From the NCBI GenBank assembly GCA_005110385.1, contig DUDT01000009.1, positions 1,660-65,659 of the forward strand: a stretch of DNA of 64,000 nt, given 5' to 3'. How positions within the stretch are numbered: position 1 is the stretch's first letter; every line of letters begins with the position of its first letter. Both the position numbers and the translations under genes were made by a program. The notes under the pieces are model-generated. The model did not search any database. It worked only from the letters and a program-made list of their open reading frames with translations, and had not been told where the DNA came from. Source of the stretch: Candidatus Melainabacteria bacterium (GTDB taxonomy: Bacteria; Cyanobacteriota; Vampirovibrionia; LMEP-6097). This document shows, piece after piece, positions 6,474 through 57,089 of the stretch.

Positions 6474-6505
6474 AAACGCAGGAATTGGAGATTGGCAATA
6501 GTGCC
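6474..6505 (+). repeat. AAACGCAGAA-type dispersed repeat, copy A (intergenic, abuts the cimA ATG)
   Basis: aaacgcaggaattggagattggcaatagtgcc aligns along its whole length with copies at 46598, 36742 and 56371(rc). Confidence 0.8.
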
Positions 6506-8134
6506 ATGCGAGCAATAGAGATTTACGATACTACACTTAGAGATGGCGCGCAGATGCGTGGCATCTCTTTTAGCGTCAATGATAAACTCAAAGTACTAAG
6601 GCTATTAGATGATATTGGTGTGGCTTTCGTAGAGGGCGGTTGGCCTGGGGCGAATCCGAAGGATGTAGATTTTTTTACTGAAGCAAAAAAGATTAAGCTG
6701 AAAAACACTCAGCTAGTAGCTTTTGGCAGTACTCGTAAAGCGAATACTAAGGTGGAGTCAGATCCTATATTAGCTGCTCTTTTGCGAGCGGAGACACAGG
6801 TGATCTGCATAGTTGGGAAAAGCTCTGCCCCGCAGGTTACCAATACTTTAAAGATTTCCCTAGCAAAGAATTTAGATATGCTCGCTGAAAGTATATCTTT
6901 TCTGAAATCAGAAGGCCGCCGAGTGATAATAGATGCTGAACATTTCTTTGATGGTTACGTGGCTGATTCTGCTTACTCGCTTAAGTTTGCTAAAATTGCG
7001 GTGGAAGCTGGGGCTGAAACCTTGGTTCTCTGTGATACTAATGGTGGCAGTTTACCCGAGCAGGTTTTTAAAATCACTAAAGAGATTACAGATGCTTATA
7101 AAGAGAAGCTTAAAATTGGTATTCATGCACATAATGACTGTGAGCTTGCGGTAGCTAACAGTATTAGAGCGGTGAGAGCTGGTGCTACTCAAGTGCAGGG
7201 AACCATTAATGGCTATGGAGAACGCTGTGGTAATGCGAATCTGATTTCTATAATTCCTAATCTGGAGCTTAAGTATACTGAAGAGAAATTAAAGTGCTTA
7301 CCTAAGGATAAGTTAAAACATTTGAGCAGTCTTTCTCATTCTGTCGCTGAAATAGCTAATCAGCACCACAGTGCCCATCAGCCTTTCGTCGGAGCTAGCT
7401 CCTTCGCTCATAAAGCTGGCTTGCATGCAAGTGCAATGAAGAAGCAGGACTTTAGTTATGAGCATATAGACCCTCTTTTAGTAGGTAATGCTACGAAGAT
7501 TATTATTTCAGAGCAGTCTGGCGTGAGTAATATACTAGATTGGCTACAGAAGAAAAAGCTTTCTCCTAAAGCGAATGATGAGATTATTGGAGAATTCGCT
7601 AAAACTGTTTTAGAGAGAGTGAAGAAGCTAGAGCATAAGGGATATAGCTTTGAGAATGCTGATGCGAGTTTAGAGTTAATGGTGCGTAAATTAATAGATG
7701 TAGAAGGCTCTGCTGAAACTAAACTCAAGGCTTATAAGCCTTACTTTAAGCTAGTGGAGCACAATGTATATATTTCAAATGGCGAGAAGACAGAGGCTAC
7801 GGTACGAATCGAAATAGCAGGTGAGGAAATCCACTCTGCGAGTGTGGGTAATGGTCCGGCTAATGCCTTAGATAAAGCTCTTAGAAAAGCTTTAGTAAGT
7901 TTTTATCCTAAGATAGAAGAGTTTCAGCTATTAGATTACAAGGTAAGGATTCAGGATAGTTCACTTGGAACGGCAGCTCTGACTAAGGTTCAGGTTAATA
8001 CTGGAAATTTAGCTGAGGATTGGGATACTATCGGCGTTAGCACTAATATTATAAAAGCTTCTTGGGATGCGATTGTTGATAGTATTGAATATGGTTTGAT
8101 CAAGTATGGTGTTAAACCGGTTGAATTCGCTTAG
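6506..8134 (+). CDS. cimA: Citramalate synthase / 2-isopropylmalate synthase family (with LeuA-type C-terminal regulatory domain)
   Basis: MRAIEIYDTTLRDGAQ start, HAHND and the LeuA_dimer-like tail. The track ORF starts at TTG 6485, but that extension is encoded by repeat copy A. Confidence 0.85.
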   Translation: MRAIEIYDTTLRDGAQMRGISFSVNDKLKVLRLLDDIGVAFVEGGWPGANPKDVDFFTEAKKIKLKNTQLVAFGSTRKANTKVESDPILAALLRAETQVICIVGKSSAPQVTNTLKISLAKNLDMLAESISFLKSEGRRVIIDAEHFFDGYVADSAYSLKFAKIAVEAGAETLVLCDTNGGSLPEQVFKITKEITDAYKEKLKIGIHAHNDCELAVANSIRAVRAGATQVQGTINGYGERCGNANLISIIPNLELKYTEEKLKCLPKDKLKHLSSLSHSVAEIANQHHSAHQPFVGASSFAHKAGLHASAMKKQDFSYEHIDPLLVGNATKIIISEQSGVSNILDWLQKKKLSPKANDEIIGEFAKTVLERVKKLEHKGYSFENADASLELMVRKLIDVEGSAETKLKAYKPYFKLVEHNVYISNGEKTEATVRIEIAGEEIHSASVGNGPANALDKALRKALVSFYPKIEEFQLLDYKVRIQDSSLGTAALTKVQVNTGNLAEDWDTIGVSTNIIKASWDAIVDSIEYGLIKYGVKPVEFA

Positions 8135-8154
8135 GGGCTGCTCGCAATTTTTAA

Positions 8155-8186
8155 GGCACTTGTTGCCGAATTTTAAGTTCTGCGTT
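8155..8186 (-). repeat. AAACGCAGAA-type dispersed repeat, copy B (inverted, 21 nt after the cimA stop)
   Basis: ggcacttgttgccgaattttaagttctgcgtt is the reverse complement of aacgcagaacttaaaattcggcaacaagtgcc. Confidence 0.75.
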
Positions 8187-8323
8187 CCTTAAAAAATTTT
8201 CATAAAAGATAATATCGTATGAAGGACTTTTAACTTTGCATTTATTAAAATTAGCTTATACTAGTTCGTGTAAGCGTTTGATTGATTTAAAAAAAAATTA
8301 ACTGAGCGTGGTCTTTCTCACAC

Positions 8324-8392
8324 ATTTCCAAGTTTATGTATTAAATTTGGTTGGCAAGTCCTTAAAACACCTGAAATATTTTGAGGTGTTCA
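8324..8392 (+). promoter_or_regulatory. Conserved structured leader, copy 1 (hairpin, TTGGCAAGTCCTTAAAAC box and an SD-sequestering hairpin)
   Basis: Hairpin ccaagttt/aaatttgg (8328-8350). The box is shared with copies at 8824 and 9045. aacacct (8366-8372) pairs with aggtgtt (8384-8390), covering the GAGG Shine-Dalgarno sequence. Confidence 0.45.
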
Positions 8393-8572
8393 ATGAATTT
8401 AGCTATTCCTTTTATGACAGCTGCTGCTTTAGCTGTTCTTGGAGCCTTGCCGAAGGTTGGGCATAGTGGTTCTGATTCGGGGGCATTAAATCCTAGTCCA
8501 CGGCAAGCTTCTGCTACTTTGGAATCTTCTAATGATCGCTCACGAGCTGCATCTATGTTGCAGCCAGCTTAA
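8393..8572 (+). CDS. Small peptide (59 aa) with hydrophobic N-terminus, paralog of 9169..9336
   Basis: ATG 5 nt after GAGGTG. Translation is MNLAIPFMTAAALAVLGALPKVGHSGSDSG...NDRSRAASMLQPA. G+C is higher than in the surroundings, and a strong terminator follows. Confidence 0.5.
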   Translation: MNLAIPFMTAAALAVLGALPKVGHSGSDSGALNPSPRQASATLESSNDRSRAASMLQPA

Positions 8573-8598
8573 ACCCAAATAAACTAAACACAATTAAC

Positions 8599-8632: not shown

Positions 8633-8781
8633 AGAGGCTGATTTACAGTGAGGCTGCTTGCAAATGTACAAGTTCAAGACATTCTTGTTGAGCATGCAAG
8701 CTCAAGGCGGGGGAGGGCAAATGACCGCAAAATGTAGTCGAATATCTGCTTCGTTAAAAGATTAAATTATCCTAAGCCTAC

Positions 8782-8810: not shown

Positions 8811-8823
8811 GATTCTTCTATAA

Positions 8824-8869
8824 CTTTCCATGTTTCTGTACCAAACATGGTTGACGCAAGTCTTAAAAC
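8824..8869 (+). promoter_or_regulatory. Conserved structured leader, copy 2 (its downstream ORF has decayed)
   Basis: ctttcc, then hairpin ccatgttt-ctgtacc-aaacatgg, then ttgacgcaagtcttaaaac. The downstream homologous SD+ATG reads ATG TTG CTT TAG only. Confidence 0.45.
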
Positions 8870-12705: not shown

Positions 12706-12810
12706 GAAGGGCGTGCAGTCAAACGAATAAGTTCAAGGCTGAATGCCCAAAAAATTTAATCATTATCCTAGAAAATAGACGGGATAATTTGCTAATATAA
12801 TAGTCTGCCT

Positions 12811-16651: not shown

Positions 16652-19063
16652 CTACCAGTAAAAAAAGAGACCCATGTGGTTACCGAGGTAATTCCATGTA
16701 ATTTTATCAAAAATTTCTTTAAGAAGCGGAATTCCTCTGCCACCTTCACTTTCTGTGCTAACTTCATCGATACTCATATGTTTATGTCTTTGCCAATTAA
16801 ACCCTTTCCCTGGGTCTATCATAACGATTTTCAGTGAACCATCTTTAATTTCATAGCCGACTTGAACATGAGCTTCTCCAGAGTTTTTAACGCCGTATTG
16901 GGCTACATTAGCGAAAGCTTCTGTGAGACCGAGTCTTAAGATTAATCCGCTTTGTTCTGAAAGTCCATGCCTTCTGCAGTCATCGATTAAGACTTTTATA
17001 TAATTGTCACAGTTTTGATAATTGGTCATATCGACTGCTTCTAATTTAAATTCTTTTTGTTCTATGCAGAGTAAAAGTCTGTCATCGGTGACTTCACTGT
17101 CCCCGACTCTTTTGTTTAATTGTTGATTTAATCCTTCAGTGATTTGCTTAACGCTTTTATCAGTCATAGACTGTAGAGCATTTAGCATCCAGTCCTCATT
17201 GTTATTACTTGGGCTGATAAGAGTCTGCTCCATAAAGCCATCTGTGAAAAGTATAAGCTTATCTTTCGGTGATAATTGAATAGTCTGCCTCTGGTAATAA
17301 GCTTCTAGGTCTCTGGGGTCTATTAATCCGAGCGGTACGCCAGTGGGTTCATCGGCAGAGAGCATGATGGCTTTGCCATCTTTAATGACATAGGGTTTAA
17401 GGTGCCCAGCATTGGTGTAAGCTAGTTCTCCAGTGTGTAAATTAAAAACTCCATACCAAGCAGTCGCGTAAAAATCAGAATTATTACTTTGGGCTAACAG
17501 TGAGTCACATAAAAAAGATATAACTTTTTCAGGAGCCCAAGCGAGCGAAGAGTTTTCGATAATCGCGTTAAACTGTCCGAGAATATAACCAGTAAGTAGG
17601 GCAGCAGCAGGGCCTTTACCTGATACATCGCCGATTAATACGCCGACTACATCGGGGGAAAGTTCTGAAACCCAGTAGAAATCACCAGATACATTGCTGT
17701 GCGGCTTATATAGTACAGAAATATTCATGGAGGTATTTAAAATGTCACCACCAATAAGTGAGCTTTGTACTCTTGCTGCTTGCTTTAATTCACGTGAAAG
17801 CCTGCCTTGATAAGCATTTAACTGTTCATATATTTCAGACTGTGTCATCGCCACTATAACTTGACTAGCAGCTGATTCTACGAATGTCACTTCATCTTCA
17901 GTCCATGTTCGAGGAAATAGAGACTGAAATACTATCCAACCTCTTAATTCACCTTGGGCGAAAAGTGGCGTAGCCAGTGCCGATCTCGCTCCGGAATTTA
18001 TAAGCTCTTGTTTTTCTTCATCATTTAATTTTTGTAGATTTTCGGTCGAAATCAGGTTTTCGATTATTATTGTTGCGTAGATATCTTTAGTATTTAATTT
18101 ATCGAGAATTAAATGTTTGCATTGCCCTGCGATATTCGGAACACCAGTAGCGCAGAATTCTTCTGAAATATGATCATTCATGAAAAGGAAGCAGCGAGAG
18201 ACTTTTACGGCAAAGCCCAACTCATTAACTGTTCTTGAGAGTATCTCCTTGAGGTTTAAGCTTGAGCGAATTTGGCTGGTCAGGCTATTTAAGAGTTCTG
18301 CTTGTTTAGTTCTTTCATGTGATTTTTTAAAGAGGCGTGCTCTTTCTATGGCTGTCATTAATGGATAAGAGATCGCTTGTAATAACTGAATATCATTGTC
18401 TTGCCAATCAGTATGCTGTGAACAGTCTTGTAAATAAATTAAGCCTAAGACCTCGTTTCTGAGCAGTAAAGGTACGGAGAGAAATGAAAAAACATCATCT
18501 AAAAAATGATTAGAATATTCACTATTTATTTCCTCAAATTGCAGAGGTCTTTTACATCTGAGTATCCGAAAGAAAAATTCATCTCGTTTCAGTAAATTAT
18601 ATTCAAGGTTACGTCCATGCTCATCTTCACAAAATTCTACAACTTGAAATTTATTGCCTTGTAAAAAAACTATCCCGCAGCGACTAACTTTAAAGAATTT
18701 AGCCATTTGTTTAGTTAAATATTTAAGTATATGAGTGATGTTCAGTGAACTATTGACTTTCTCTACCCACTGATTTAAAAGCCTTTCTCTTTCAGCAAGA
18801 GCATGCGCAGACTGTCTTTCTTGCATTAAAGCGAAGGTGGTGTTCTGTAAATATAGGGATAGCCTTTCAGTTTCAGCTAAGGTTTTTTCCATCATTGCAG
18901 TTTTTTCTGCATTCAATAATCTCTCTTCTTCAAGCTGTTTAGCGAGGCTTTCAAGCTGTGCCTGCAATTCATCTAGAGACCCATGCACAACTCCGTTCTC
19001 TGCGTTTTTGTAATCGGTCTCTTTTGTATTATCTGCGTCAGTGGTTTTAGAATTATCTCTCAC
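16652..19063 (-). CDS. Multidomain partner-switching protein: coiled coil, two GAF domains, PP2C/SpoIIE phosphatase and RsbW-like HATPase_c kinase
   Basis: 803 aa. SpoIIE-type motifs (SGDFYW, GDVSGKG, LFTDG) and a C-terminal GHKL ATPase (NVAQYG ... GGRGIPL). Confidence 0.85.
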   Translation of the reverse strand: MRDNSKTTDADNTKETDYKNAENGVVHGSLDELQAQLESLAKQLEEERLLNAEKTAMMEKTLAETERLSLYLQNTTFALMQERQSAHALAERERLLNQWVEKVNSSLNITHILKYLTKQMAKFFKVSRCGIVFLQGNKFQVVEFCEDEHGRNLEYNLLKRDEFFFRILRCKRPLQFEEINSEYSNHFLDDVFSFLSVPLLLRNEVLGLIYLQDCSQHTDWQDNDIQLLQAISYPLMTAIERARLFKKSHERTKQAELLNSLTSQIRSSLNLKEILSRTVNELGFAVKVSRCFLFMNDHISEEFCATGVPNIAGQCKHLILDKLNTKDIYATIIIENLISTENLQKLNDEEKQELINSGARSALATPLFAQGELRGWIVFQSLFPRTWTEDEVTFVESAASQVIVAMTQSEIYEQLNAYQGRLSRELKQAARVQSSLIGGDILNTSMNISVLYKPHSNVSGDFYWVSELSPDVVGVLIGDVSGKGPAAALLTGYILGQFNAIIENSSLAWAPEKVISFLCDSLLAQSNNSDFYATAWYGVFNLHTGELAYTNAGHLKPYVIKDGKAIMLSADEPTGVPLGLIDPRDLEAYYQRQTIQLSPKDKLILFTDGFMEQTLISPSNNNEDWMLNALQSMTDKSVKQITEGLNQQLNKRVGDSEVTDDRLLLCIEQKEFKLEAVDMTNYQNCDNYIKVLIDDCRRHGLSEQSGLILRLGLTEAFANVAQYGVKNSGEAHVQVGYEIKDGSLKIVMIDPGKGFNWQRHKHMSIDEVSTESEGGRGIPLLKEIFDKITWNYLGNHMGLFFYW
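18978..19008 (-). repeat. AAACGCAGAA-type repeat embedded in an ORF (encodes KNAENGVVHGS)
   Basis: The reverse complement aaaacgcagagaacggagttgtgcatgggtc aligns with the intergenic consensus. Confidence 0.55.
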
Positions 19064-19420: not shown

Positions 19421-20893
19421 ATGGTACTAGATCAATATACCCAGAATATAATCATAAGGAACTCAAAAGAACTAGTCAAAAATGCTAAAATCAACTCGGA
19501 AAATGGTTATATAGCTGATGTATCAGCTTTATCTCAAATAAATACAACAGATAACCTAGTCAAAAAACAGATAATTTCACCAGGTTTTATAAATTTACAC
19601 TCGCATCTTGCATATACGCATTTGGATTTAGAACCTAAAAATCTCTTCGCTTGGCTGAAAGATTTAATGCATAAAGTTCAAAATGAATCTTTTAATCCTA
19701 TGGAGGCAAGCCTTGCTGGAGCAAGGCTTGCACTCAGTACAGGTACGACATTTTTAGTAGATAATACTTCGCATTTAGCTGCAAGCGTAAAGGCTTTTCA
19801 GAAAACTGGTTTAAGAGGAATTATTGGGCTTGAGCTATTTGGGTCTGATCCACAGCAAGCTAAAACTATTTTAAATAAGGCGCTAGAAGAATTAAGGTTG
19901 ATGACACTTAGCCTAAAAGCTCAGCGGTTCGATGAAGTGCCTGAGCAGTGCCATAAAATTCAATTCGCTCTTTCACCACACTCTTTGTATAGTGTTTCTA
20001 GTGAATTAATGCAAGAGGCACAAGTATTCTTGTCTAATTTATCTAAAGAGTCTACTGTTTCTGATTTACTTCCTATTTTATTAATGCACTTTGCAGAAGA
20101 TGAGCTCGAAGAGAAATATTTTAGCGGTGTGGATTTTAGGCGTAATCACCTTATTGGTGATGGTTTTGAAGGTTCTTTATTACATGATGAACAGGAGCTT
20201 ACACTGATGTATGATTTCTGGGAGTCTCTTGGAGTTTTGGATTTAAAGAAGAGATATAGAAAGCAGGCTAGGTCATCGTGGGATTATTTTAAAAAATATG
20301 TACTTAGTGCAGAAAATGGGGTGAAGTATCAGTCTATTAAATATTTACTAACCCATGCTATAAATCTTTCAGAGACCGAGATTAAAGAACTCGCCAATTA
20401 TCCTGAAATTTCTTTAGTAAGCTGCCCTCGCAGTAATCAGTTTTTAAAACACAATAATGCTCAAATCGCTCTATGGGAGAAATATGGTACCTACGAGCCT
20501 AGCAAAAACGTAGAAGATAGAGTTGAGCATCGGTCTTATAATTATGGTTTGGGGACTGATAGTAAGGCTTCTAATTATGATTTAGATTTAAGGTCAGAGC
20601 TGAAGGTGCTGTTAGAGACTGTTAGAAATGCAGGAATTGGAGTCTCTCAACAGTACCTTGAATTAACTTCTCAGAGACAGTTTGAGCTATTAACTAGTTC
20701 TGCTGCTAAAGCTATAGGGATGGAGGATAAGATTGGTAGCCTAGAAGAAGCTAAGTATGCTGATTATGTAGTTTTTGAGGTTATGGATGATAATTTAGAT
20801 TTAGATTTAGTAGATCCTTATGCTTTAGTTTTAGATGGAGAGAAGACTCGGGTTAAAGAGGTTTATGTTGGGGGCGATCTAATCTCTATTTAA
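19421..20893 (+). CDS. Amidohydrolase-family metal-dependent hydrolase/deaminase
   Basis: PGFINLHSHLAY (HxH metal motif) and a C-terminal ADYVVF...V.V.G. It could be an (amino)futalosine- or MTA-type deaminase, but the substrate cannot be resolved. Confidence 0.7.
   Translation: MVLDQYTQNIIIRNSKELVKNAKINSENGYIADVSALSQINTTDNLVKKQIISPGFINLHSHLAYTHLDLEPKNLFAWLKDLMHKVQNESFNPMEASLAGARLALSTGTTFLVDNTSHLAASVKAFQKTGLRGIIGLELFGSDPQQAKTILNKALEELRLMTLSLKAQRFDEVPEQCHKIQFALSPHSLYSVSSELMQEAQVFLSNLSKESTVSDLLPILLMHFAEDELEEKYFSGVDFRRNHLIGDGFEGSLLHDEQELTLMYDFWESLGVLDLKKRYRKQARSSWDYFKKYVLSAENGVKYQSIKYLLTHAINLSETEIKELANYPEISLVSCPRSNQFLKHNNAQIALWEKYGTYEPSKNVEDRVEHRSYNYGLGTDSKASNYDLDLRSELKVLLETVRNAGIGVSQQYLELTSQRQFELLTSSAAKAIGMEDKIGSLEEAKYADYVVFEVMDDNLDLDLVDPYALVLDGEKTRVKEVYVGGDLISI
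20506..20535 (+). repeat. AAACGCAGAA-type repeat embedded in an ORF (encodes KNVEDRVEHRS), diverged
   Basis: aaacgtagaagatagagttgagcatcggtc aligns with copy C (aaacgcagaaataggagcttccgctacatgccc). Confidence 0.45.
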
Positions 20894-25978: not shown

Positions 25979-26968
25979 TCAGCTAGATGATTTTCTAGCA
26001 AAGGCTACAGCATTATGTGCATGAAGACTCTCTAAATGCTGTACTTTAATACTAAAATCGGAGAGATTTTCTAAGCTTTCACAGAAAAACTTTAACCTTC
26101 TTGCAGCATCCTCACTAAACATAAAGTTTCTACCATTAAGCCTTGCGAATTCTTGCTCATCTTCCCTTTTCACCGCTGCTTGGACGGGTGTTGATATAGC
26201 CTTTTCTAGACCATCTATTATCTCATCTAGATTAAGAGACTGATCACAATTTTCTATTTCTGTGTTTTCGTCGTTATCATTAATCTTAGGCTCCCCTGTA
26301 TGCATAAAATCTATATCAGCATAGCTTCTTTGACTATGAGGAGTAGCAACTTGACTTTCTTCTTTACCCAACCAATTATATATATCTGTAATACTAGGAG
26401 TTTGATCCCCAAATGTTTTTAAAAACTCTTCTTGTATAAGCTGCCGAGATAAGGCTGCGGAGCAAGGGCAGGTACTAGAGTAGGTTATTCGAATACTGGT
26501 CGTGAATGATATTTCATCTGCATGGTTTATCTCAGCTTTTAAAACCACCGGATAGGATCTCCAAGCATTGTTATCACTCACGAGAGCTGGTCTACGCAAC
26601 ATATAATCAAACTGGATTTCAACAAAGGCATTTAAACTCATATCTATATGAGACTCTTTTAATTTTTTAACTAAATCTCCAAGAGATTTATAGCTTAAAG
26701 GCTTCTCATCAAAAGTCTTATGTGCTTGCAATAGCAACCTCGACATATGTATCCCTTTTTTATGAGGAGCATCTAAACTAACATAAAGATTAGCGAAAGC
26801 TGGGATTAGGGTGACTTCCCCTTCGCTAGATTGAAGCTTAAGGGCAAGTTCAACCTTTTCCATCCCAACTTTTTCTAAAGTACCAGTAATTTGTGCTTTA
26901 GTTTCGATGGCAATATCTGGAAATGTGGGCGGTTTGTTCTTTTTTGTAGTGAAAAGTTCTACTTTCAT
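25979..26968 (-). CDS. folE2: GTP cyclohydrolase I type 2 (FolE2/MptA family) with a lineage-specific insertion
   Basis: KGIHMSRL and SSTCPCSAALS motifs of the DUF198/FolE2 family. Confidence 0.6.
   Translation of the reverse strand: MKVELFTTKKNKPPTFPDIAIETKAQITGTLEKVGMEKVELALKLQSSEGEVTLIPAFANLYVSLDAPHKKGIHMSRLLLQAHKTFDEKPLSYKSLGDLVKKLKESHIDMSLNAFVEIQFDYMLRRPALVSDNNAWRSYPVVLKAEINHADEISFTTSIRITYSSTCPCSAALSRQLIQEEFLKTFGDQTPSITDIYNWLGKEESQVATPHSQRSYADIDFMHTGEPKINDNDENTEIENCDQSLNLDEIIDGLEKAISTPVQAAVKREDEQEFARLNGRNFMFSEDAARRLKFFCESLENLSDFSIKVQHLESLHAHNAVAFARKSSS
26236..26268 (-). repeat. AAACGCAGAA-type repeat embedded in an ORF (encodes ENTEIENCDQSL), diverged
   Basis: gagactgatcacaattttctatttctgtgtttt aligns with the inverted consensus GGCACTnTTnCCGAACTTCAAnTTCTGCGTTT. 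Confidence 0.45.
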
Positions 26969-36732: not shown

Positions 36733-36741
36733 GACCGGCAA

Positions 36742-36774
36742 AAACGCAGAAATAGGAGCTTCCGCTACATGCCC
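36742..36774 (+). repeat. AAACGCAGAA-type dispersed repeat, copy C (fills the gap between convergent prfB and purH)
   Basis: aaacgcagaaataggagcttccgctacatgccc starts 10 nt after the prfB stop and abuts the purH stop codon. Confidence 0.8.
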
Positions 36775-38373
36775 TTAATGCTTAAAATGCCTTATCTGAG
36801 TAAACGCCATAGCAATGCCTAAATCATCACAAGCTTTAATAACCTCTTCATCACGAATAGAACCACCTGGCTGAATAATCGCAGCTATATGGTTTTGGGC
36901 AGCGAGGTGCACATTATCAGCGAATGGGAAAAAACCATCAGAAGCCATTACGGCTCCCCTTGTATCTAAATCAAAATTACGCAGAGCATCCTCTACTGAC
37001 TTGACTCTGTTCGTCTGACCGACACCGATTCCTAGTGTCCTGCCGCCTTGAGTCGTCACTATCGCATTAGATTTAACATGCTTCACTACTTTTAAAGCTA
37101 GTATGAGATCCACCCATAGGCTTTCGTCTATAGTGGTCTTAGTAACGGTTTTTAATAAAGTCTGGTCTATAAGCTGATGATTAGCTGTTTGTATAAGGAA
37201 ACCACCATCAATTTTTTTAATATCTAAAAGATTCTGAGAATTTTTAAAATTAGGATGCTCTATTAATCTGATGTTCTTTTTCTGGGTGAGTATCGCAAAC
37301 GCTTCAGGGGTGAAGCTTGGAGCGATAACTGCTTCTAGGAAAATCTGACTTAATTCATTTGCTAGAGCTATGTCTACTGGATTATTTAGAGCTACCACTC
37401 CACCAAAAGCACTTACAGAGTCGGCTGCAAGGGCTTCTATAAAGGCTAAAGTGATATTAGGAGCTATTGCTACGCCACAAGGATTATTGTGTTTAACGAT
37501 AGCTGCACAAGGAATCTCTGGACCATACTCTTGGACTATATTATAGGCAGCGGAAAGATCAAGTAAATTATTAAAACTCAGATCTTTTCCATGTAATTTA
37601 TTTGCATCAGCAAGTCCACGATATTTTGAATTAGATTCAATATAAAGACCAGCCTGCTGATGAGGGTTTTCACCATAACTTAGCGTCCTCACTCTCTCTA
37701 AATTTAAAGTAAGTTTTTCAGGTAGTAAATTTTCATCTGTGGAGCTGCTTTCAGCAGTCGTTTTAAAAGAATCAGTGTTCGCTTGAGCTAAAAATCTTTC
37801 GATTACAGTATCATAGGCACTAGTCATCCTAAAAGTCTCAGCAGCTAGCTGTTTTCTATAATTTAGATCTAGAGATTTACTTTTATATCTCTCAGTAAAA
37901 GCATCATATTGATCAGGATTAGACAGTGTTATAACGTGCCTGAAATTCTTAGAAGCAGCTCTTAAAAGGCTGGGTCCACCTATATCTATATTTTCTATAG
38001 CTATATCTAGGGACTGCTCCCTATCTTCAATTTCTGCGTTAAGGTTTTTAGTAACTTCAGCGAAAGGATAGAGATTAACTATAACAAGGTCTATAGATAA
38101 TATATTTTCTCTTTCTATTTCTTCTAAATGCTGGTGATTATTTCTGTCATAAAGAATGGCTCCAAAAATTTTCGGATGTAGCGTTTTCACTCTGCCTGAA
38201 AGTATCTCTGGGAAATTACTGAGATCCCGAACCTCAGTTACTTTATAACCAGCAGCCTTGATAAAAGCCGCTGTACCAGAACTGCTGATAAAGTCATACT
38301 CAGCATCAAGAACTTCTAAAAGTTCTTCTAACTTAGATTTATCGGAAACAGAGATTAGAGCCTTTTTTTTCAT
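36775..38373 (-). CDS. purH: Bifunctional AICAR transformylase / IMP cyclohydrolase
   Basis: 532 aa. Motifs ALISVSDK, NLYPF, ENIDIGGPSLLRAASKN and a C-terminal FTQIRHFKH. Confidence 0.95.
   Translation of the reverse strand: MKKKALISVSDKSKLEELLEVLDAEYDFISSSGTAAFIKAAGYKVTEVRDLSNFPEILSGRVKTLHPKIFGAILYDRNNHQHLEEIERENILSIDLVIVNLYPFAEVTKNLNAEIEDREQSLDIAIENIDIGGPSLLRAASKNFRHVITLSNPDQYDAFTERYKSKSLDLNYRKQLAAETFRMTSAYDTVIERFLAQANTDSFKTTAESSSTDENLLPEKLTLNLERVRTLSYGENPHQQAGLYIESNSKYRGLADANKLHGKDLSFNNLLDLSAAYNIVQEYGPEIPCAAIVKHNNPCGVAIAPNITLAFIEALAADSVSAFGGVVALNNPVDIALANELSQIFLEAVIAPSFTPEAFAILTQKKNIRLIEHPNFKNSQNLLDIKKIDGGFLIQTANHQLIDQTLLKTVTKTTIDESLWVDLILALKVVKHVKSNAIVTTQGGRTLGIGVGQTNRVKSVEDALRNFDLDTRGAVMASDGFFPFADNVHLAAQNHIAAIIQPGGSIRDEEVIKACDDLGIAMAFTQIRHFKH
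38011..38040 (-). repeat. AAACGCAGAA-type repeat embedded in an ORF (encodes LNAEIEDREQSL)
   Basis: ggactgctccctatcttcaatttctgcgtt. It lies in a loop between NLYPF and ENIDIGG that is longer than in the E. coli PurH sequence as I recall it. Confidence 0.7.
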
Positions 38374-42189: not shown

Positions 42190-43404
42190 ATGCCTAATAA
42201 TGATGCCAAAAATTTAATTGAATTTATTGATATCTTAAATGTTAAAAATTTTGTAGAACTTGCAAATAAGACCTGTAAATTATTGGTAGAGAAATTTTCT
42301 AAGCAAAATGCTGACTTCGCTTATTTCTATCTTTCTGGTTACGAAGGGAAAATATATTATTCACTGAAAGATGATAAAAAAGCCGCTAAATTTTCCATTA
42401 CTGAATCTGACACTAGTGAATTTAAAAAGATTTATTACATACACAAAGAAACAGAAGGTCATATTAGTTCTGCCTTCACTGTTTTTAGCCGAACTAAATC
42501 AGCTAATAATTTAGCTAAGAACGCAGAATTTGAAAATCACGAGCAGCCCCCTAGCACTCTCCCAGAGAAGGATTTAGAGCTTTTAAATAGAATGGTGAGC
42601 GCTATATTAGATCAAATTTCTTTATTATCAGCTTTAGAGAATATTCAGTTAAACAATGAAAGATTAGTGAAACTTAACGAAAATAAGACCCAGATATTAG
42701 GCACCGTCTCGCACGAATTAAGGACTCCGATGTCTGCGATATTAGGTTTTAGTGAGCTTTTGTTAAATGCTTCGTACAGCCCCGAGCTTACAAAAAAATA
42801 TTTAGAAGAAATCTATCAAGCTTCTAAAAAACTTGCTGGTTTAATAGATGATTTCCTCGATTTATCACGCTTAGAATCAAATGATGAATTATTTCTAAGT
42901 GATTTTGAAGCAGTTGAGATATCGACTCTTGCAAGAAAAGCATGGGATGAGATTCAGGATCAACATAAACCATATTCGGTTAAGTGGGCTGTGAATTCTG
43001 AGATGCCCTATATACTCTGTGACGTAGTAGCTGTCGAGAGGGTATTTCATAATTTATTCTCGAATGCCATAAAGTATTCACCGATAGAGGTTTCTAAGCC
43101 AGATAGAAAAGTGATTAACTGTAGAATAGATATAGTCACGGCAGCAAGTCCAGAGAATTTTTTTGATGAAATTTCTGTATCTATTAGTGACAACGGAATG
43201 GGTATCGCTAAAGAGAATGTAGGACAGGTTTTTGAGCGTTTTATGCGAGTAGATAATAGTGATACACGTAAAATCGGTGGCACGGGGCTCGGTTTATGGA
43301 TCTGCAAGCAGATTATCGAAGCTCATGGTGGTAAGATCTGGTGTGAGAGTGAGCTTGGACAGGGTAGTGTGTTTAAGTTTATTTTGCCGATTTATCGGGG
43401 GTGA
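42190..43404 (+). CDS. Cytoplasmic sensor histidine kinase (HisKA plus HATPase_c)
   Basis: H-box [15 protein letters not shown]-box [10 protein letters not shown], and G-boxes DNGMGI and [11 protein letters not shown]. Confidence 0.85.
42520..42550 (+). repeat. AAACGCAGAA-type repeat embedded in an ORF (encodes [12 protein letters not shown])
   Basis: aacgcagaatttgaaaatcacgagcagcccc aligns with the intergenic consensus from the AACGCAGAA core to the terminal GCCCC. Confidence 0.6.
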
Positions 43405-43406: not shown

Positions 43407-43437
43407 GGCTGCTCATCAGCTCCAGTTTCTGCGTTTT
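43407..43437 (-). repeat. AAACGCAGAA-type dispersed repeat, copy D (inverted, partly diverged; right after the kinase stop)
   Basis: ggctgctcatcagctccagtttctgcgtttt. Its TTTCTGCGTTTTAA end supplies the stop codon of the 596-aa gene. Confidence 0.65.
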
Positions 43438-45226
43438 AAAAATTCATTAATTCATTAAATGCCTTATCATAATAACTATTCGAGTTCTCAATATCAGTAT
43501 CTAGGCTAAGTGTGTCTGTATCTTTGCTTTCATCGTAATTAAAGAATACAGTTCTAGAATGACTTTTATAACAGGCATCTTCTAGGCTCATTTCATTATT
43601 TTTTAAACGATTAAAATTTCCTTCTAAAAATCTTAACGGCAATATATAGAAATTAAAATCGAGGGACTCCTGTGCAATTCCATTTCCTGCATTTTTCTCG
43701 TTCTTTTTTTTATCTGGATTTAAAAGATTATGTTTAATAGCAAGCCTAGTTATTTTTTCTTTTAAGATACTGTTTCCTTCACTATTTGCAGTGTTAATTA
43801 AACTAAAAGTTTGATCTGAAATGACTAATATCGGTATAATTTCAGCTTCCTTTTTAGTTTTAGTGGCTCCCTTTGCGCCATCTTCAGTGTTGCACTGTTT
43901 ACAACCTGGATTCTCACTATAAAGCTGAATAACACCCTCTGCGAGCTTTTCTATATTCTTTTCTATTTTATCTTCATCATAAATATCCTTAAGTGCGAAG
44001 TGATAGTTTAGTTTCAGTGATTTGATTTCAATAATATAAATTTTTTCATCCGTGATGATTTTTAAATCTGAGACTTTTTCTTGACCATAGATATTAATAA
44101 ATAGATCTTTAATAAACTGCTCGAATAAATCTCCATAAAAGCTTCTAAAGGGCTGAGCAGCTCTGAGACCTTCGCTCTTAAATTCTTCTCTATAAATATC
44201 ATCTAGAGCATTAAATAACGCGTCCTCTAAAATTATATTTCTCAAATATGGATATACGGGACTAAGAAAAAAAGGATATCGATTTTTATATTTTCTATCA
44301 GGTCTTATCAATGGATAGATCATCAGAGGGTTTATCGGGTTTAATTCTTTAGCTTTTTCTTGAAATTCTTTATAGGAGAGGGAGAAGGGCATTAGGGTTT
44401 TAATGATTGAATCTTTTTCTATTGACTCATTTACCTCAAGCAAGCGAGCTTGTATTTTTGGAAGATCCTCTTCTTCCCATTTGATGCTCTGATAATCTAT
44501 ACACCCACTAAAATTATACTTGCCTTGCTTCCAGCCCAATTCTTTATCGTGTAAGACTCCGAGGGAACCAAATATCAGAAAAGCCTTCATGGATAAAGAA
44601 AATTTTTCTTTAAATTTAGTTTCTGGGTTAATACTCTCAGTCTTTGCCTCAGTGGCAATATTACTAAATAGTTTTTTATGACGTTTTTTAAATTCTTCTT
44701 TCTTCGCATCTTTCTCTGTGAGATGCTTATAGGCTTTAATAAAAATTAAATACTGCCTAGCAAGTAAGTGCCTGCGATTAGACTGTCTCTGAATTTGATA
44801 CTTAGCTTGCATTTCCCATAAATGCAGCCAAAATTGAGCATTCCACATATCTGAATCTCTAATTCTTATTTCTTCCCCATTTTCAGTTTTCAAGTCTGGA
44901 GATTTATGAACTACGTGATACCAAAGATATCCACTGACATTGAAAAAATACTCAAGCTTCTCAACTTTATCCTTTCTAGCACTGAGATATAAAGCCTTTG
45001 TATCATTTGCACCGCTGATGATAAGTAACTGAACTAAATATCCGAGGCTTTCTTGAGTGAACATCACATCCTTATTTTTATAAGCAAAGCCATTACTAAT
45101 TTCACTTGAGGCATCTGGATTAGCATAGAGATATTCAGAGACCTTTCCTATTTCGAGTAGAGCATCCTGAAGGTTATATTTGCCTAGCTCGCGTATTAAA
45201 TCATGTTCAGTAATTTTGCGTTGCAT
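43436..45226 (-). CDS. Hypothetical 596-aa protein with a candidate PD-(D/E)xK nuclease core
   Basis: I recognise no family. The segment GDLFEQFIKDLF...VSDLKIITDEKIYIIEIKS fits helix-E, then D, then a beta hairpin, then ExK of restriction-endonuclease-like folds. Confidence 0.65.
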   Translation of the reverse strand: MQRKITEHDLIRELGKYNLQDALLEIGKVSEYLYANPDASSEISNGFAYKNKDVMFTQESLGYLVQLLIISGANDTKALYLSARKDKVEKLEYFFNVSGYLWYHVVHKSPDLKTENGEEIRIRDSDMWNAQFWLHLWEMQAKYQIQRQSNRRHLLARQYLIFIKAYKHLTEKDAKKEEFKKRHKKLFSNIATEAKTESINPETKFKEKFSLSMKAFLIFGSLGVLHDKELGWKQGKYNFSGCIDYQSIKWEEEDLPKIQARLLEVNESIEKDSIIKTLMPFSLSYKEFQEKAKELNPINPLMIYPLIRPDRKYKNRYPFFLSPVYPYLRNIILEDALFNALDDIYREEFKSEGLRAAQPFRSFYGDLFEQFIKDLFINIYGQEKVSDLKIITDEKIYIIEIKSLKLNYHFALKDIYDEDKIEKNIEKLAEGVIQLYSENPGCKQCNTEDGAKGATKTKKEAEIIPILVISDQTFSLINTANSEGNSILKEKITRLAIKHNLLNPDKKKNEKNAGNGIAQESLDFNFYILPLRFLEGNFNRLKNNEMSLEDACYKSHSRTVFFNYDESKDTDTLSLDTDIENSNSYYDKAFNELMNF

Positions 45227-46553: not shown

Positions 46554-46597
46554 GAAGGGGCTTGAAATTATTAGTTTAAGGTTAGTTTTACGATTTT

Positions 46598-46630
46598 AAA
46601 CGCAGAACTTGGAGTTCGGCAATAGTGCCC
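46598..46630 (+). repeat. AAACGCAGAA-type dispersed repeat, copy E (19 nt upstream of the trmFO GTG)
   Basis: aaacgcagaacttggagttcggcaatagtgccc is the best consensus-like copy. Confidence 0.85.
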
Positions 46631-46649
46631 TCTGCTAAAATAAAACTCT

Positions 46650-54936: not shown

Positions 54937-54996
54937 ACGATTTTATATTACAAGTAAATGGCCCAATGGCCAAGCTTATGAGGAATAATATATTAT

Positions 54997-56370
54997 ATGG
55001 AGTCACTTGATCTCATCAAAGCAGAAAGTTCTGGATGTCAAAGTTTCGATAGGAGTAAGTTTAAAGACTATTATCAGATCTGTATTGAGGAAGATAAAAA
55101 ATACAGGCAGCAGTATACCTCAGGATTCAGAAGTTTTTTACAATTACTTGCTTTTGAAAAATTTGAAGAGTTTGAATTGAAAATTCAAGAAAGACCAGAC
55201 CTGCTTGCAGAGAAAGAAATTAAAGCTTTGCAGTCTTTCGTATTACTTCTATCAGATAAACCACTTACAGAGAATCATTTCTTCTCTAAATCTGCTAGTA
55301 ATTTTACTAAAAAACGCCTCTCTCACGGCATGGCCAAAGTAATCATAAGCATTCTCATCCTACTTAAAAATATACGTTTTTCTGAAAAGATACAAAGAAA
55401 ACTAGAATCTATAAATCTATTTTCACTAAAAGAGTTAATACCAGACATAGTTTTCTACTATGCTGAATATATACTAAAAGAAAATATTGAAGAGAGATTT
55501 GATCTCACTGAACAGGAGTTATTAAATTTTAAATTTGTAGATTTTTGCGAAGGCATAGAGAATATTGAAGAAAGACAAGACGCTGAAAAGATAAGGCTGC
55601 TCGCTTTCTTCTACAGAAAGAAAAAGAATGAAGCCCTTGCAGAACAATACCTGCTCGAATATAGAAAAGCTATGCCCGCAGACATAGTTACCACACTGCC
55701 TCCAGAAATTCGCACAGTAAAGAATGCAAGAACCTTTCCATCTGACCTAGTTTTAGAAAATTGGAATGAAATTTTAAATGACTGTGATGCAGCACAGGAT
55801 AAGGTAATTGAATATACAGGCATTTATAAAAACACTTGTGGATATTATAAATGTGAAGATTGCTGTAATTATACTTCGCCACACATGAGTTTAACCGAGT
55901 ATAAATTTATGCTTAACTGGATTAAAGAGAATAACTATCCGATAGCTGGAGTGATAGAAAAAGCAAAAGCCATTCAGCAAGAACATAAAAAACTCTTTGG
56001 TGAAGTAATGCCCATCATAGACACGACTATTTCTGAAAACAAAGAGAAGGGATTAGAAAATCCTTTTAATTATAAATATTCCTGTCCTTTCCTTGTCGAA
56101 GGTAGGTGTTCTATTTATCATGCTAGGCCTCTTTTATGTAGAGGGTTTGGGCTTTCTAGTGATGATGCAGTTGCAGTTAAAACCTGTAATTTTTACCTAA
56201 GCCAGTATACCCATAACTGTTCTCGTGATAATGATCGTTATGTCTATGACTTAAGACCAGTTCAAGCCATGGCTAAAGCTAGTGACAGAAAGCTAAGTCA
56301 AGAAATATTTAACACGGAGCAAGAGCTCAAGGGGACTATAGTTGCTTGGCTAGCCTCAGACCAACTCTAG
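54997..56370 (+). CDS. Hypothetical protein with a C-terminal YkgJ-type CxxCxxCC Zn/Fe-binding domain
   Basis: CGYYKCEDCCNY and CPFLVEGRCSIYHARPLLCRGFG resemble the UPF0153/YkgJ family. Confidence 0.55.
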   Translation: MESLDLIKAESSGCQSFDRSKFKDYYQICIEEDKKYRQQYTSGFRSFLQLLAFEKFEEFELKIQERPDLLAEKEIKALQSFVLLLSDKPLTENHFFSKSASNFTKKRLSHGMAKVIISILILLKNIRFSEKIQRKLESINLFSLKELIPDIVFYYAEYILKENIEERFDLTEQELLNFKFVDFCEGIENIEERQDAEKIRLLAFFYRKKKNEALAEQYLLEYRKAMPADIVTTLPPEIRTVKNARTFPSDLVLENWNEILNDCDAAQDKVIEYTGIYKNTCGYYKCEDCCNYTSPHMSLTEYKFMLNWIKENNYPIAGVIEKAKAIQQEHKKLFGEVMPIIDTTISENKEKGLENPFNYKYSCPFLVEGRCSIYHARPLLCRGFGLSSDDAVAVKTCNFYLSQYTHNCSRDNDRYVYDLRPVQAMAKASDRKLSQEIFNTEQELKGTIVAWLASDQL

Positions 56371-56401
56371 GGGCGTGTAGCCGAACTCCTATTTCTGCGT
56401 T
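56371..56401 (-). repeat. AAACGCAGAA-type dispersed repeat, copy F (fills the gap between convergent genes)
   Basis: gggcgtgtagccgaactcctatttctgcgtt starts right after the TAG at 56368-56370 and overlaps the TAA of the methyltransferase gene. Confidence 0.8.
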
Positions 56402-57089
56402 ACTGCACGCTGTGCAGCGATCTTTCCAGAATGAGTACTCGACTACCATTATCCACTGTCGTATAACTAAGCTGCTTAAAACCTGCTTCTGTAAATAATC
56501 TTGTTAAGTCCTCATCTGAATAGTTCCTGAGATACATACCTTTTCGCATAGGGTCTAAATATTGACGCGTACCATCATCGAAGCATATAAACTCACCCTT
56601 ATTACTAGTCGCCACCACATCAAAAACACCATAAATATATGCTTGAGGCTTTAAATGCTTTTTTAAATTAGCTAACAATTGAGCAGCACTAGCTAAATCA
56701 AAATGCTCAAGGCAAGCGTTCATGATTACACAATCAAAATCCTTCTCTGTTAGCTGCATGTCTAAGATATCCGCACAATAAAATTCTACATCTAGGCACT
56801 GTTCCCGAACTTCAATTTCAGCGTTTCCCTTCTTCGCAAGATTAATCGCCGCCTCTGAAGTATCCACACCACGCACTTTAAAACCAGCCTTCGCTAACAT
56901 AAAAGATAACCAACCAGAGCCACAAGCTAAATCAAGAATTTTTGTTATGGGATATTTTTTTAAATCTGGAATTATATTCTTTATATACTCAAGATTAGGA
57001 GGAGTGTATACAGCCTTAGTAACTCTTTGCCATGCAGCCTCCCAAAATTTGAGGTTCATTTTATAATTTTCTAAATTAACTTGAAGCAT
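56400..57089 (-). CDS. Class I SAM-dependent methyltransferase
   Basis: Motif I ILDLACGSGWLS and the acidic VDTSE post-I motif. Confidence 0.85.
   Translation of the reverse strand: MLQVNLENYKMNLKFWEAAWQRVTKAVYTPPNLEYIKNIIPDLKKYPITKILDLACGSGWLSFMLAKAGFKVRGVDTSEAAINLAKKGNAEIEVREQCLDVEFYCADILDMQLTEKDFDCVIMNACLEHFDLASAAQLLANLKKHLKPQAYIYGVFDVVATSNKGEFICFDDGTRQYLDPMRKGMYLRNYSDEDLTRLFTEAGFKQLSYTTVDNGSRVLILERSLHSVQ
56795..56826 (-). repeat. AAACGCAGAA-type repeat embedded in an ORF (encodes GNAEIEVREQCL)
   Basis: ggcactgttcccgaacttcaatttcagcgttt matches both the mtnA-internal copy and the intergenic consensus. Confidence 0.75.

Follow-up and report, generated by a model that had tools for sequence, protein, structure and literature searches.

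The window, a 64,000-nt stretch of contig DUDT01000009.1 from a Candidatus Melainabacteria bacterium, contains a dispersed repeat with 15 clear copies by nhmmer seed profile (E 7e-9 to 3.5e-5). Six are intergenic (A to F) and nine lie inside ORFs, at 19006(-), 20507(+), 20627(+), 26266(-), 27187(-), 38040(-), 42520(+), 43693(-) and 56825(-). The original prediction had described the six intergenic copies, and they are present where and on the strands reported, far above chance by both shuffles and nhmmer. Their over-representation is likewise borne out: the 32-mer with three or fewer mismatches matches twice versus 0 in 100 shuffles, and AAACGCAGAA matches three times versus 0.21 expected in the window. 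Including weaker and partial copies, the following features were annotated.

1035..1066, minus: weak degenerate remnant in ORF 266..1195 (repeat family D8; below profile significance)
6469..6505, plus: intergenic right-end remnant (A), abutting the cimA ATG at 6506 (seed profile E=3.6e-8; full-length profile positions 85-121)
8130..8189, minus: right-end remnant (B, 8152-8189) nested in an older right arm (8130-8154), just past the cimA stop
8652..8730, plus: two neighbouring left-end fragments within 1.2 kb of non-coding DNA, 8652-8680 (full-length profile positions 3-31, E=0.1) and 8682-8730 (positions 5-53, E=8e-7)
12710..12742, plus: left-end fragment 5' of tRNA-Gly (profile positions 2-34; aligned to the intact orthologous copy in L022)
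18970..19015, minus: right-end remnant in ORF 16652..19063, sense strand, frame NAENGVVHGSLD
20496..20542, plus: right-end remnant in amidohydrolase ORF 19421..20893 (named from Pfam), sense, frame NVEDRVEHRS
20623..20664, plus: second right-end remnant in the amidohydrolase ORF, frame NAGIGVSQQYL (repeat family D4, seed profile)
26228..26288, minus: right-end remnant in GTP cyclohydrolase (GCHY-1 family, Pfam) ORF 25979..26968, frame DNDENTEIENCDQSL
27150..27215, minus: longest window copy, in MtnA ORF 27041..28309 (profile positions 63-120, E=9.7e-14), encoding HEDHEDDENAEIEAREQCQ
28002..28053, minus: weak degenerate copy within another insertion of MtnA, NHENNENTKNAALNPSS (repeat family D1; below profile significance)
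36724..36778, plus: right-end remnant (C), of which 36738-36778 fills the convergent gap from the prfB stop (36732) to the purH stop (36775-36777)
38003..38042, minus: right-end remnant inside PurH, NAEIEDREQSLD (seed profile; orthologue series)
42516..42554, plus: right-end remnant in histidine-kinase ORF 42190..43404 (Pfam), 11 residues
43403..43439, minus: right-end remnant (D), filling the entire 31-nt gap between convergent stop codons
43656..43700, minus: right-end remnant in 596-aa ORF 43436..45226, NAGNGIAQESLD (repeat family I2, seed profile)
46597..46632, plus: right-end remnant (E), 5' of trmFO (E=6.6e-9), kept at the orthologous site in L068 and L087, two other species
56364..56425, minus: right end (F) joined to part of an older copy's left arm (profile match; alignment to L072)
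56788..56842, minus: right-end remnant in methyltransferase ORF 56400..57089, NAEIEVREQCLD; the L072 orthologous copy is 30 nt longer
61344..61410, minus: internally deleted copy (profile positions 8-54, E=5.5e-9)

The repeat had been proposed to sit exactly at gene boundaries. This is accurate for the intergenic copies, since A, C, D and F do fill gaps, abut the cimA ATG (A) or supply a stop (F; 56364-56405 supplies that of methyltransferase ORF 56400..57089, and 56364..56425 encodes the last codons of this ORF as well), but it does not describe the family, given the nine copies within ORFs. Each of these nine lies on the coding strand and reads in one common frame, N-A-E-I-E-x-R-E-Q-S/C-L-D. 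Two further degenerate copies had been suggested. The one at 12709-12741 is real, although it is a left end (full-length profile positions 2-34, E=0.0025), and the other, at 50875-50893, is merely a 12-nt resemblance (GGCAATGGTGCC) that was undetected by any profile. In total, the window holds 15 right ends and four left ends, all of them deletion remnants, with no intact element. Immediately upstream of the remnant at 18970..19015 there may be a decayed left arm.

The 31-mer is not a self-contained unit, as had been supposed, but forms the right-hand end of a palindromic element of 121 nt found in five related Caenarcaniphilales (Melainabacteria) MAGs of ~36% GC, in which the matches are concentrated; no matches were found in plasmids, phages or viral contigs. 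In these MAGs, the repeat has a conserved upstream extension in 85 copies. The intact element consists of GGCACTGTTGCCGAAC, an 89-nt core and GTTCGGCAACAGTGCC, with 16-nt covarying terminal inverted repeats at its ends and a covarying inner hairpin within a near-invariant core. Longer variants of 130, 190, 202 and 205 nt carry additional hairpins. In a gap-free alignment of 57 distinct full-length copies, each of the 16 pairs of the terminal helix varies at both positions, and pairing holds in 92.5% of cells, compared with 30-42% in slid controls; the covariation score is 0.265 versus 0.112 for shuffled alignments and was reached by none of 500 shuffles. Folding of the complete element gives a long hairpin (-53.5 kcal/mol, z=-6.9). 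The earlier statement that no long palindrome is present thus holds for the window copies only, which lack one because they are truncated. The termini keep pairing rather than sequence, a pattern that is atypical of DDE-transposase-driven MITEs and is reminiscent of REPIN stems. The core is near-invariant among paralogues, third codon positions included, and orthologous core copies are 90-100% identical. Decay of selfish DNA does not by itself explain such a core, and continuing constraint or gene conversion must therefore act on it.

The element has moved, as orthologous sites are filled in some genomes and empty in others. Clean pairs are L034 versus L065 (target ATTTA) and L025/L055 versus L095, and comparison with empty sites revealed target duplications for a 36-nt solo end and a 37-nt mini-hairpin as well. 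A perfect 5-bp flank repeat borders nine of 57 full-length copies (0.45 expected), and a 3-bp repeat borders 21 of 57 (3.5 expected). Neither the window nor ~0.6 Mb of related loci yielded a transposase or another gene that could mobilise the element, and a search for a RAYT/TnpA(REP) gene, a proposed check, found none in the sampled DNA.

Each intact size class (121, 130, 190, 202 and 205 nt) gives a multiple of three when 5 bp are added to its length, and translates open. Only frames +0 and -0 of the element are open, the stop-free +0 frame reading GTVAERASSRLRRTNDRSVLRVHEDHEDDENAEIGVRQQC. As a result, about half of the copies lie in-frame (+0) within ORFs (123 of 231 profile matches; 30 of 62 intact copies). 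Copies in coding sequence number 126 sense versus four antisense. Since the -0 frame is also open, this one-strand bias requires either selection at the peptide level or a bias in insertion orientation. Host genes encode unrelated enzymes, and the insert position is variable. The inserts correspond to gaps in alignments to solved PurH and MtnA structures: the copy at 27150..27215 falls in a ~30-aa MtnA insertion (query residues 356-393 versus residues 299-306 of PDB 1t9k), and the second MtnA insertion, NHENNENTKNAALNPSS, adds ~28 aa relative to 1t9k. In the AlphaFold model of the PurH orthologue P0049, insert residues 113-155 have pLDDT <50 between well-folded flanks. Outside genes, convergent gaps are favored over divergent ones (38 versus 14, p=0.001), and co-directional gaps show a mild orientation bias (26 same versus 12 opposite, p=0.03). 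Most copies are found within genes and not at their edges. Closeness to coding sequence reflects where a compact genome tolerates insertion, with stop codons sometimes donated by decaying remnants, and not a function at gene ends.

Orthologue comparisons document how copies decay. PurH orthologues that are 81-97% identical share one insertion site, which is empty in P0061, P0063 and P0064, carries the full 42-aa insert in P0049, P0050, P0053 and P0054 or a long variant in P0048, has internal deletions in P0052, P0058, P0046 and P0047, and is tandem in P0059. The window PurH has only the 31-mer at this site (38003..38042), which is what finally remains of the full-length insertion still present in close orthologues. 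Three window fragments can be aligned to intact orthologous copies. The fragment at 12710..12742 is a deletion derivative of a 190-nt-class element that is complete in L022, where the nested arrangement of copy B is also present; the site of copy F holds a complete long-variant element in L072, and that of the 1035..1066 remnant a full-length in-frame copy in L058 and L096. The copy at 61344..61410 is reduced to the left arm, 34 core nt and the final 7 nt of the right arm, and its intergenic site in L072 is occupied by a different full copy in the opposite orientation. Solo ends are far commoner than intact units, and right-end copies have a fixed 3' end and heterogeneous 5' starts. Left-only remnants are depleted in coding sequence (5 of 26, versus 74 of 132 right-only remnants, p=0.001). 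The related loci were chosen for containing the right-end motif, so their copy densities and their excess of right over left ends are biased.

We conclude that the 31-mer is probably the conserved right terminus of small, non-autonomous, MITE-like mobile elements that behave like Rickettsia palindromic elements (RPEs). The suggestion of a REP/MITE-like miniature mobile element was therefore sound as to class, considering the terminal inverted repeats, 5-bp target-site duplication and filled and empty sites, but the 31-mer itself is only a right-terminal remnant. RPEs are small palindromic repeats inserted in-frame in unrelated housekeeping genes, where the conserved peptide is tolerated by the host protein (PMC10969869). 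Shared with RPEs are a palindromic repeat of ~100-150 nt, the lack of a transposase, tens to hundreds of copies and a large in-frame fraction in genes, with a disordered loop in the PurH model. This likeness is one of description; RPEs belong to Alphaproteobacteria, and the present hosts are Melainabacteria. The present family also differs in its documented 5-bp duplication with every size class plus 5 bp a multiple of three, in covarying termini of several arm types that flank an invariant core, and in that most copies are short right-end remnants. Among MITEs (class traits after the review PMC10969869), the Correia element of Neisseria, Nezha of cyanobacteria and QMITE1 of Coxiella share terminal inverted repeats, target-site duplication, a length of <300 nt, high copy number, occasional in-frame ORF fusion and nested or tandem insertions. 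Here, however, no insertion sequence was identified whose ends match and that could be the parent, the sequence of the terminal repeat is variable and covarying rather than fixed, and in-gene occupancy is far above the MITE norm.

An unlikely alternative is a REPIN-like element whose single-stranded DNA hairpin would be moved by a RAYT or an IS200/IS605-type HUH tyrosine transposase, with the 31-mers equivalent to REP singlets. REPINs are non-autonomous long-hairpin units, and singlets are what is left when the replicative unit decays (PMC3116915, PMC3337134), and the long fold, compensatory changes preserving stem pairing, vertical inheritance within a lineage and excess of solo ends over intact units are all similar here (PMC3116915; PMC3337134). 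The mild intergenic orientation bias also fits this reading. REPINs, however, are extragenic (PMC3116915), lack a target duplication and go together with a RAYT gene, whereas half of the present copies are in genes, the 5-bp duplication at filled and empty sites is constant, the sampled DNA contains no RAYT or repeat-flanked Y1 transposase gene, and a GTAG-type REP head motif is not evident. IS200/IS605-type transposition is known to generate no target-site duplication.

It is very unlikely that the family is a structured RNA, either spreading through an RNA intermediate (a retro-mobile, SINE-like parasite of reverse transcriptase) or functioning in the mRNAs that carry it. Two helices supported by covariation, optional hairpins inserted in a loop, the core's invariance at third codon positions, the fixed 3' and heterogeneous 5' ends of right-end copies, the 36-nt solo's own target duplication and the sense-only orientation in genes would suit an RNA. 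Yet fragments arise in place by deletion of full copies, perfect terminal inverted repeats with a fixed 5-bp duplication are traits of DNA transposons, no Rfam family or ribozyme matched at E up to 10, and no reverse transcriptase was seen nearby; the sense bias is also much weaker outside genes, as expected if it is caused by selection at the level of translation.

Uptake sequences (Neisseria DUS, Pasteurellaceae USS) are 10-12 nt (or ~30 nt) long, evolve in place and have no target duplication. They too are short over-represented motifs, common close to the ends of genes and as terminator-like inverted pairs, but membership was rejected, as the present motif is the end of a 121-nt structured, inserted unit with filled/empty polymorphism and a strand and frame bias in genes unlike that of uptake sequences. 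More broadly, that the motif is primarily a host-functional signal spread by selection (uptake sequence, protein-binding site, terminator or mRNA stabiliser, useful peptide module) is very improbable: convergent-gap enrichment, some copies kept at orthologous sites in three species, a slowly evolving core and a secretin gene noted earlier in the window speak for it, but against it stand insertion rather than evolution in place, insert-free orthologues, a unit far from a 10-30-nt signal, a stem with no trailing T run, unrelated carrier enzymes with variable insert positions, and a peptide that is predicted to be disordered and has no Pfam match. The element may still serve as a recognition site for a host protein or RNA, the third role suggested earlier; no Rfam family matched it.

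For the MITE-like element, the following course is proposed. An enzyme making 5-bp staggered cuts would mobilise it in trans, presumably recognising the folded or paired termini together with the conserved subterminal core, and insertion duplicates a 5-bp target. In the sense strand and right phase, an insertion leaves the gene unbroken and adds a hydrophilic, disordered loop of ~42 aa, tolerated because a whole number of codons is always added. Insertions in genes in other phases or on the other strand would be purged by selection, which would produce the one-strand, one-frame pattern, and intergenic copies survive mainly in 3'-3' gaps. Copies later decay through deletions; in genes, it is mostly the arginine-rich left part that disappears and the acidic right end (..DDENAEIExREQS..) that stays, and some window remnants now supply C-terminal codons or stop codons. 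The carriers are freshwater Caenarcaniphilales (Melainabacteria/Vampirovibrionia) that belong to a single genus-level group and are related to cyanobacteria but do not photosynthesise. The family is new, while its kind, MITE/RPE-like selfish DNA, is already known though rare.

The repeat followed here is real. A 32-mer of it, allowing up to three mismatches, had two matches in the window against none in shuffled sequence, and AAACGCAGAA had three against 0.21 expected. Profiling with nhmmer, as suggested in the original prediction, found 15 copies in the window with E-values from 7e-9 to 3.5e-5, followed by a sharp fall to E>2. The six intergenic copies first described (A to F) were all recovered in place, and repeat finding, with a scan for the 9-mer core that allowed one mismatch, brought out additional copies that had not been listed. 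Nine of the 15 profile copies lie inside long ORFs, namely an 803-aa ORF, an amidohydrolase (two copies), a GCHY-1-family cyclohydrolase, MtnA, PurH, a histidine kinase, a 596-aa ORF and a methyltransferase. All nine follow the coding strand in one shared frame, reading N-A-E-I-E-x-R-E-Q-S/C-L-D. A position exactly at gene boundaries is thus true of the minority of copies originally listed, but not of these nine. The unit was also underestimated at ~31 nt, as the motif is only the last 31-32 nt of a 121-nt consensus. The 64-kb window has 15 right-end and four left-end copies. There is about one copy or remnant per 3-4 kb, half of them within genes.

A scan for AACGCAGAANTNGRAGNTCGG using one genome per species found matches concentrated in five MAGs of ~36% GC, labeled as follows:
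Cyanobacteria bacterium REEB446
Ca. Caenarcaniphilales RE-15aug16-7
Vampirovibrionia Deming_bin.154
"bacterium" samp_4445_VAMB_679
"Proteobacteria" WB4_1_1465
Single matches scattered over unrelated high-GC genomes were in line with chance. The five MAGs are JAGWWP, JBJTTW, CANHDW, JBMOEX and RFQS; overlapping parts share 85-96% DNA identity with the window, which therefore represents a sixth, related species. Freshwater metagenome contigs, JGI 3300002306 among them, also carry the gene for the window PurH protein, and the population of the window is present in metagenome time series from Lake Mendota and elsewhere. The MAG material analyzed comprised 8-kb stretches around motif matches, about 0.6 Mb of loci, in which the selected loci carry 2.5-6.2 copies per 10 kb, a figure that is ascertained because the loci were picked by the motif. 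An origin from plasmids, phages or viruses was discarded because nothing similar to the element was present in the plasmid, phage and viral collections searched. In the literature, we found no paper tying Caenarcaniphilales or Melainabacteria to such repeats.

In the MAG loci, conservation extends far upstream of the 31-mer, and a gapless alignment of 57 distinct copies yielded the 121-nt consensus GGCACTGTTGCCGAAC GTGCAAGTTCAAGGCTGAGGAGGACGAATGACCGCAGTGTACTGCGGGTACATGAGGATCATGAGGACGACGAAAACGCAGAAATTGGA GTTCGGCAACAGTGCC, which is predicted to fold as one long hairpin (-53.5 kcal/mol, z=-6.9). The terminal 16-nt arms are inverted repeats of at least five types (e.g. GGGCGTGTAGCCGAAC/GTTCGGCTACACGCCC and GAGACCGCTGCACAAC/GTTGTGCAGCGGTCTC). 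Across 53 copies, each of the 16 pairs of the terminal helix has changes in both of its positions, and pairing is kept in 92.5% of cells, against 30-42% in slid controls. The covariation score of this helix was 0.265 versus 0.112 in shuffled alignments, a value reached by none of 500 shuffles, and the compensated changes include ones private to single copies. The inner hairpin, GTGYAY-N5-RTRCAT, has compensatory changes at two pairs, and the core outside it is almost invariant. Intact copies fall into size classes of 121, 130, 190, 202 and 205 nt. The 130-nt class has one additional CATGAGGAT unit, and the three longest contain extra self-folding hairpins within the inner loop. Rfam 15 recognized only a tRNA-Gly in the window at the gathering score, and a full-length copy gave chance-level matches (E >=0.9) when E-values up to 10 were allowed. 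A hammerhead core (CUGANGA...GAAA) was inspected by eye and dropped, since the stems do not fit.

Several features indicate transposition with a staggered cut of 5 bp. A perfect 5-bp direct repeat flanks nine of the 57 copies (0.45 expected from permuted pairings), and the last 3 bp of the flank repeat match in 21 of 57 (3.5 expected). The presence/absence comparison suggested at the outset found both filled and empty orthologous sites: L034 (...ATTTA, element, ATTTA...) against L065 (...ATTTA...), and L025 and L055 against L095 ([A/G]TGTA), these and other L-numbers being loci of the related MAGs. Two short forms, a 36-nt solo right end and a 37-nt mini-hairpin, each have a 5-bp duplication of their own and an empty orthologous site, and nested and tandem copies are present. 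The motif is therefore the end of an inserted 121-nt unit that duplicates its target, and not a short motif evolving in place; it is not the DNA uptake signal (DUS/USS) that had been put forward.

Tandems of two or three complete elements, with arms shared head to tail, occur at L043 (5558-5814), L032 (1734-2121), L006 and L098, and certain tandem sites have both a solo and a full copy in one species and the solo alone in another. These arrays suggest insertion beside existing right ends or recombination of neighboring copies. A separate 1.6-kb insertion with two ORFs (178 and 211 aa, function unassigned) is located at L082 3857-5471 (MAG JBMOEX), where the window has 36 nt (14016-14052); no ends of the element were seen at either border of this insertion.

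A full-length profile found no intact copy in the window. It detected right ends, one longer right part (in MtnA) and four left-end fragments, all intergenic:
8652-8680, left-end fragment
8682-8730, left-end fragment
12710-12742, left-end fragment
61350-61396, left-end fragment
Three window fragments align with intact orthologous copies (L022, L072), from which they differ by clean deletions. The PurH gene provides a series of states at a single insertion site.

States of the PurH insertion site in orthologues 81-97% identical to the window protein
Empty: P0061, P0063, P0064
Full 42-aa insert: P0049, P0050, P0053, P0054
Long variant: P0048
In-frame internal deletions: P0052, P0058
Both ends only: P0046, P0047
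Tandem of solo and full copy: P0059
NAEIEDREQS only: window, P0045

This series indicates that the 31-mers are the final stage of decay. In-place deletions in orthologous series led us to reject 5'-truncated insertion as a general source of solo right ends; it may still be a minor route, given one solo with its own duplication. The same deletions argue against an RNA intermediate as the main route, which is otherwise suggested by the structural covariation of the element and by the spread of the 5' start points of solos.

In the MAG loci we counted 62 intact, 26 left-only and 132 right-only copies, an excess of right ends that is partly ascertainment because the loci were chosen by a right-end motif. 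Left-only remnants are depleted in coding sequence (5/26 versus 74/132 for right-only, p=0.001). This depletion, with the intergenic position of all window left ends, fits a process in which the arginine-rich left half (..RASSRLRRTNDRS..) would be preferentially lost within proteins and the acidic right end tolerated. In the methyltransferase ORF, the final eight codons and the stop are supplied by element sequence, and remnants at gene ends can be co-opted.

The left-end fragments at 8652-8730 lie in a stretch with features of its own. Between 8190 and 9345 there is 1.2 kb without a long ORF, containing three copies of a ~50-nt repeat (consensus ATAACTTTCCRTGTTTCTGTACCAAA..GGTTG..) and two small ORFs with signal-peptide-like starts:
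8320-8369, first ~50-nt repeat
8394-8573, small ORF after the first repeat, MNLAIPFMTAAALAVLG..
8820-8869, second ~50-nt repeat, after which no small ORF was identified
9041-9090, third ~50-nt repeat
9170-9337, small ORF after the third repeat, MNLVSALTLPALAFAIF..
No Rfam family matches this region. A possible role of the ~50-nt repeat is that of regulatory leader or promoter module in the expression of small secreted peptides.

The element appears well suited to residence in genes. Of six frames, the consensus is stop-free only in +0 (the sense open frame) and -0, and every size class is open in +0. All intact lengths are 1 mod 3, so that element plus 5-bp duplication adds whole codons (126, 135, 195, 207 or 210 nt). 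In the window and five MAGs together, 130 of 231 profile hits are inside ORFs, 123 of 231 are in frame +0, and orientation within ORFs is 126 sense to 4 antisense (p=2e-32). Between co-directional genes the bias is only 26 to 12 (p=0.03), and the extreme strand bias in genes therefore mostly reflects a filter at the level of translation and not a preference of insertion itself. Among intergenic copies, convergent gaps are favored over divergent ones (38 versus 14, p=0.001), as protection of promoter regions would predict.

The PurH and MtnA inserts of the window are gaps in alignment with the solved structures 4ehi, 3zzm and 1t9k. In the AlphaFold model of PurH P0049, an orthologue with a complete copy, pLDDT is <50 over the insert (residues 113-155) and 79-95 in its flanks; as modeled, the insert occupies a loop position compatible with the fold. 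The open frame encodes a 40-aa peptide (an in-gene example is HEDHEDDENAEIG). Neither this peptide nor its antisense counterpart matched Pfam, and a protein database search with the peptide listed only "hypothetical proteins" of 42-71 aa and none of the host proteins. These entries (P0001-P0044, from Vampirovibrionia/Melainabacteria MAGs) are intergenic element copies in public annotation and are probably spurious gene calls. A Shine-Dalgarno role for the GGAG of the motif was dismissed, as it lies too far (~17 nt) upstream of the ATG in copy A. The release factor 2 gene of the window (35602-36732) has a classical programmed +1 frameshift site, with ATG at 35602, a Shine-Dalgarno-like AAGGAG, CTT TGA at ~35674-35679 and a long ORF continuing in the +1 frame; the listed 294-aa ORF is therefore its downstream part only.

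Mobilization in trans by a DDE-type enzyme is suggested by the constant 5-bp duplication and the inverted ends. No transposase between paired ends or beside copies, and no parent insertion sequence with matching ends, was seen in the window and about 0.6 Mb of related loci. Left/right-end pairs 0.9-4.4 kb apart and inverted copies bracket only ordinary genes (a kinase, a glycosyltransferase, a PALP enzyme, CoaE, CrcB, GcvH and AAA_14-DUF4143), and no Y1 transposase was found among genes flanked by inverted copies in the 8-kb stretches around motif matches.

The covarying arms, invariant core and abundant singlets resemble those of REPINs and could point to REPIN-like mobilization (cf. PMC3116915). 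However, half of the element copies are in genes, whereas REPINs are extragenic. The 5-bp duplication is a further obstacle, since IS200/IS605-type transposition is not known to leave one. The element therefore departs from REPIN/RAYT systems in both respects compared, extragenic restriction and insertion without target-site duplication.

Orthologous copies are 90-100% identical in the core against 86-100% in the flanks, and some constraint or gene conversion therefore acts on the core. A more radical reading, which we consider improbable, is that the element is a structure-guided replicator with a folded single-stranded (DNA or RNA) intermediate and a hitherto unrecognized mobilizing enzyme, and not an ordinary DDE-type MITE (miniature inverted-repeat transposable element). 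It draws on the pairing-conserved termini, a near-invariant core across species, the tolerance of hairpins in one loop and sizes of 1 mod 3. If true, ends that depend on a hairpin, a staggered-cut duplication of fixed length and an evolved neutrality in coding sequence would in combination set the element apart as a new class of mobile DNA in bacteria. Finally, AAA_14-DUF4143 recurs near copies, yet is not proposed as the transposase because its many paralogues are only 23-39% identical and it matches a candidate defense family.

That gene and a second locus are of interest in themselves:
45239-46447, AAA_14-DUF4143 ATPase gene, PADLOC candidate defense family PDC-S01 (E=1e-107)
43403-46632, the same gene and the adjacent 596-aa ORF (family unassigned) between two outward-facing right-end remnants
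58563-60747, 583-aa PtuA-like (Septu-type) AAA_21/AAA_15 ATPase and a 116-aa ORF matching PDC-S09
At least 10 divergent AAA_14-DUF4143 paralogues occur in related MAG loci, some also bracketed by copies, an association that could be chance. The PtuA-like ATPase and PDC-S09 ORF are missing from L072, an otherwise collinear orthologous region, and form a small accessory island, probably one of defense.

The element can be compared with known systems. It is small (<~300 nt) and without its own transposase gene, has terminal inverted repeats, a target-site duplication and filled and empty sites, and reaches high copy number per genome as judged from window counts, the MAG density being ascertained. 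In structure it is a MITE, save for a known parent insertion sequence. The miniature mobile element (REP/MITE-like) initially considered is thus supported, a REPIN-like form being improbable. Rickettsia palindromic elements (RPEs) are palindromic, about 100-150 nt long, without transposase and often in-frame in unrelated genes (PMC10969869). The element likewise enters unrelated genes in-frame with a conserved peptide, and its insert is tolerated in a loop of the fold, the latter by prediction only (AlphaFold PurH). By this comparison it is closest to RPEs in behavior; membership of an RPE family is not claimed, and its hosts are Melainabacteria MAGs. We regard it as a new family within a kind of element already known, unusual for its structure-conserving ends and for size classes tuned to 1 mod 3.

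In-frame selfish palindromic DNA in housekeeping genes has mostly been regarded as a peculiarity of Rickettsia. The element extends RPE-type behavior, at high density, to free-living freshwater Melainabacteria, with a visible decay series and a clear rule, by which the element and its target duplication together span a multiple of three nucleotides. Many small lineage-specific loops in these proteins are transposon scars and not adaptations, gene callers turn intergenic copies into tiny hypothetical proteins, and new C-termini and stop codons can arise from remnants. As a natural data set, the family lends itself to the study of how disordered insertions are absorbed by proteins, and may be useful for finding the enzyme behind the movement of hairpin-ended elements.
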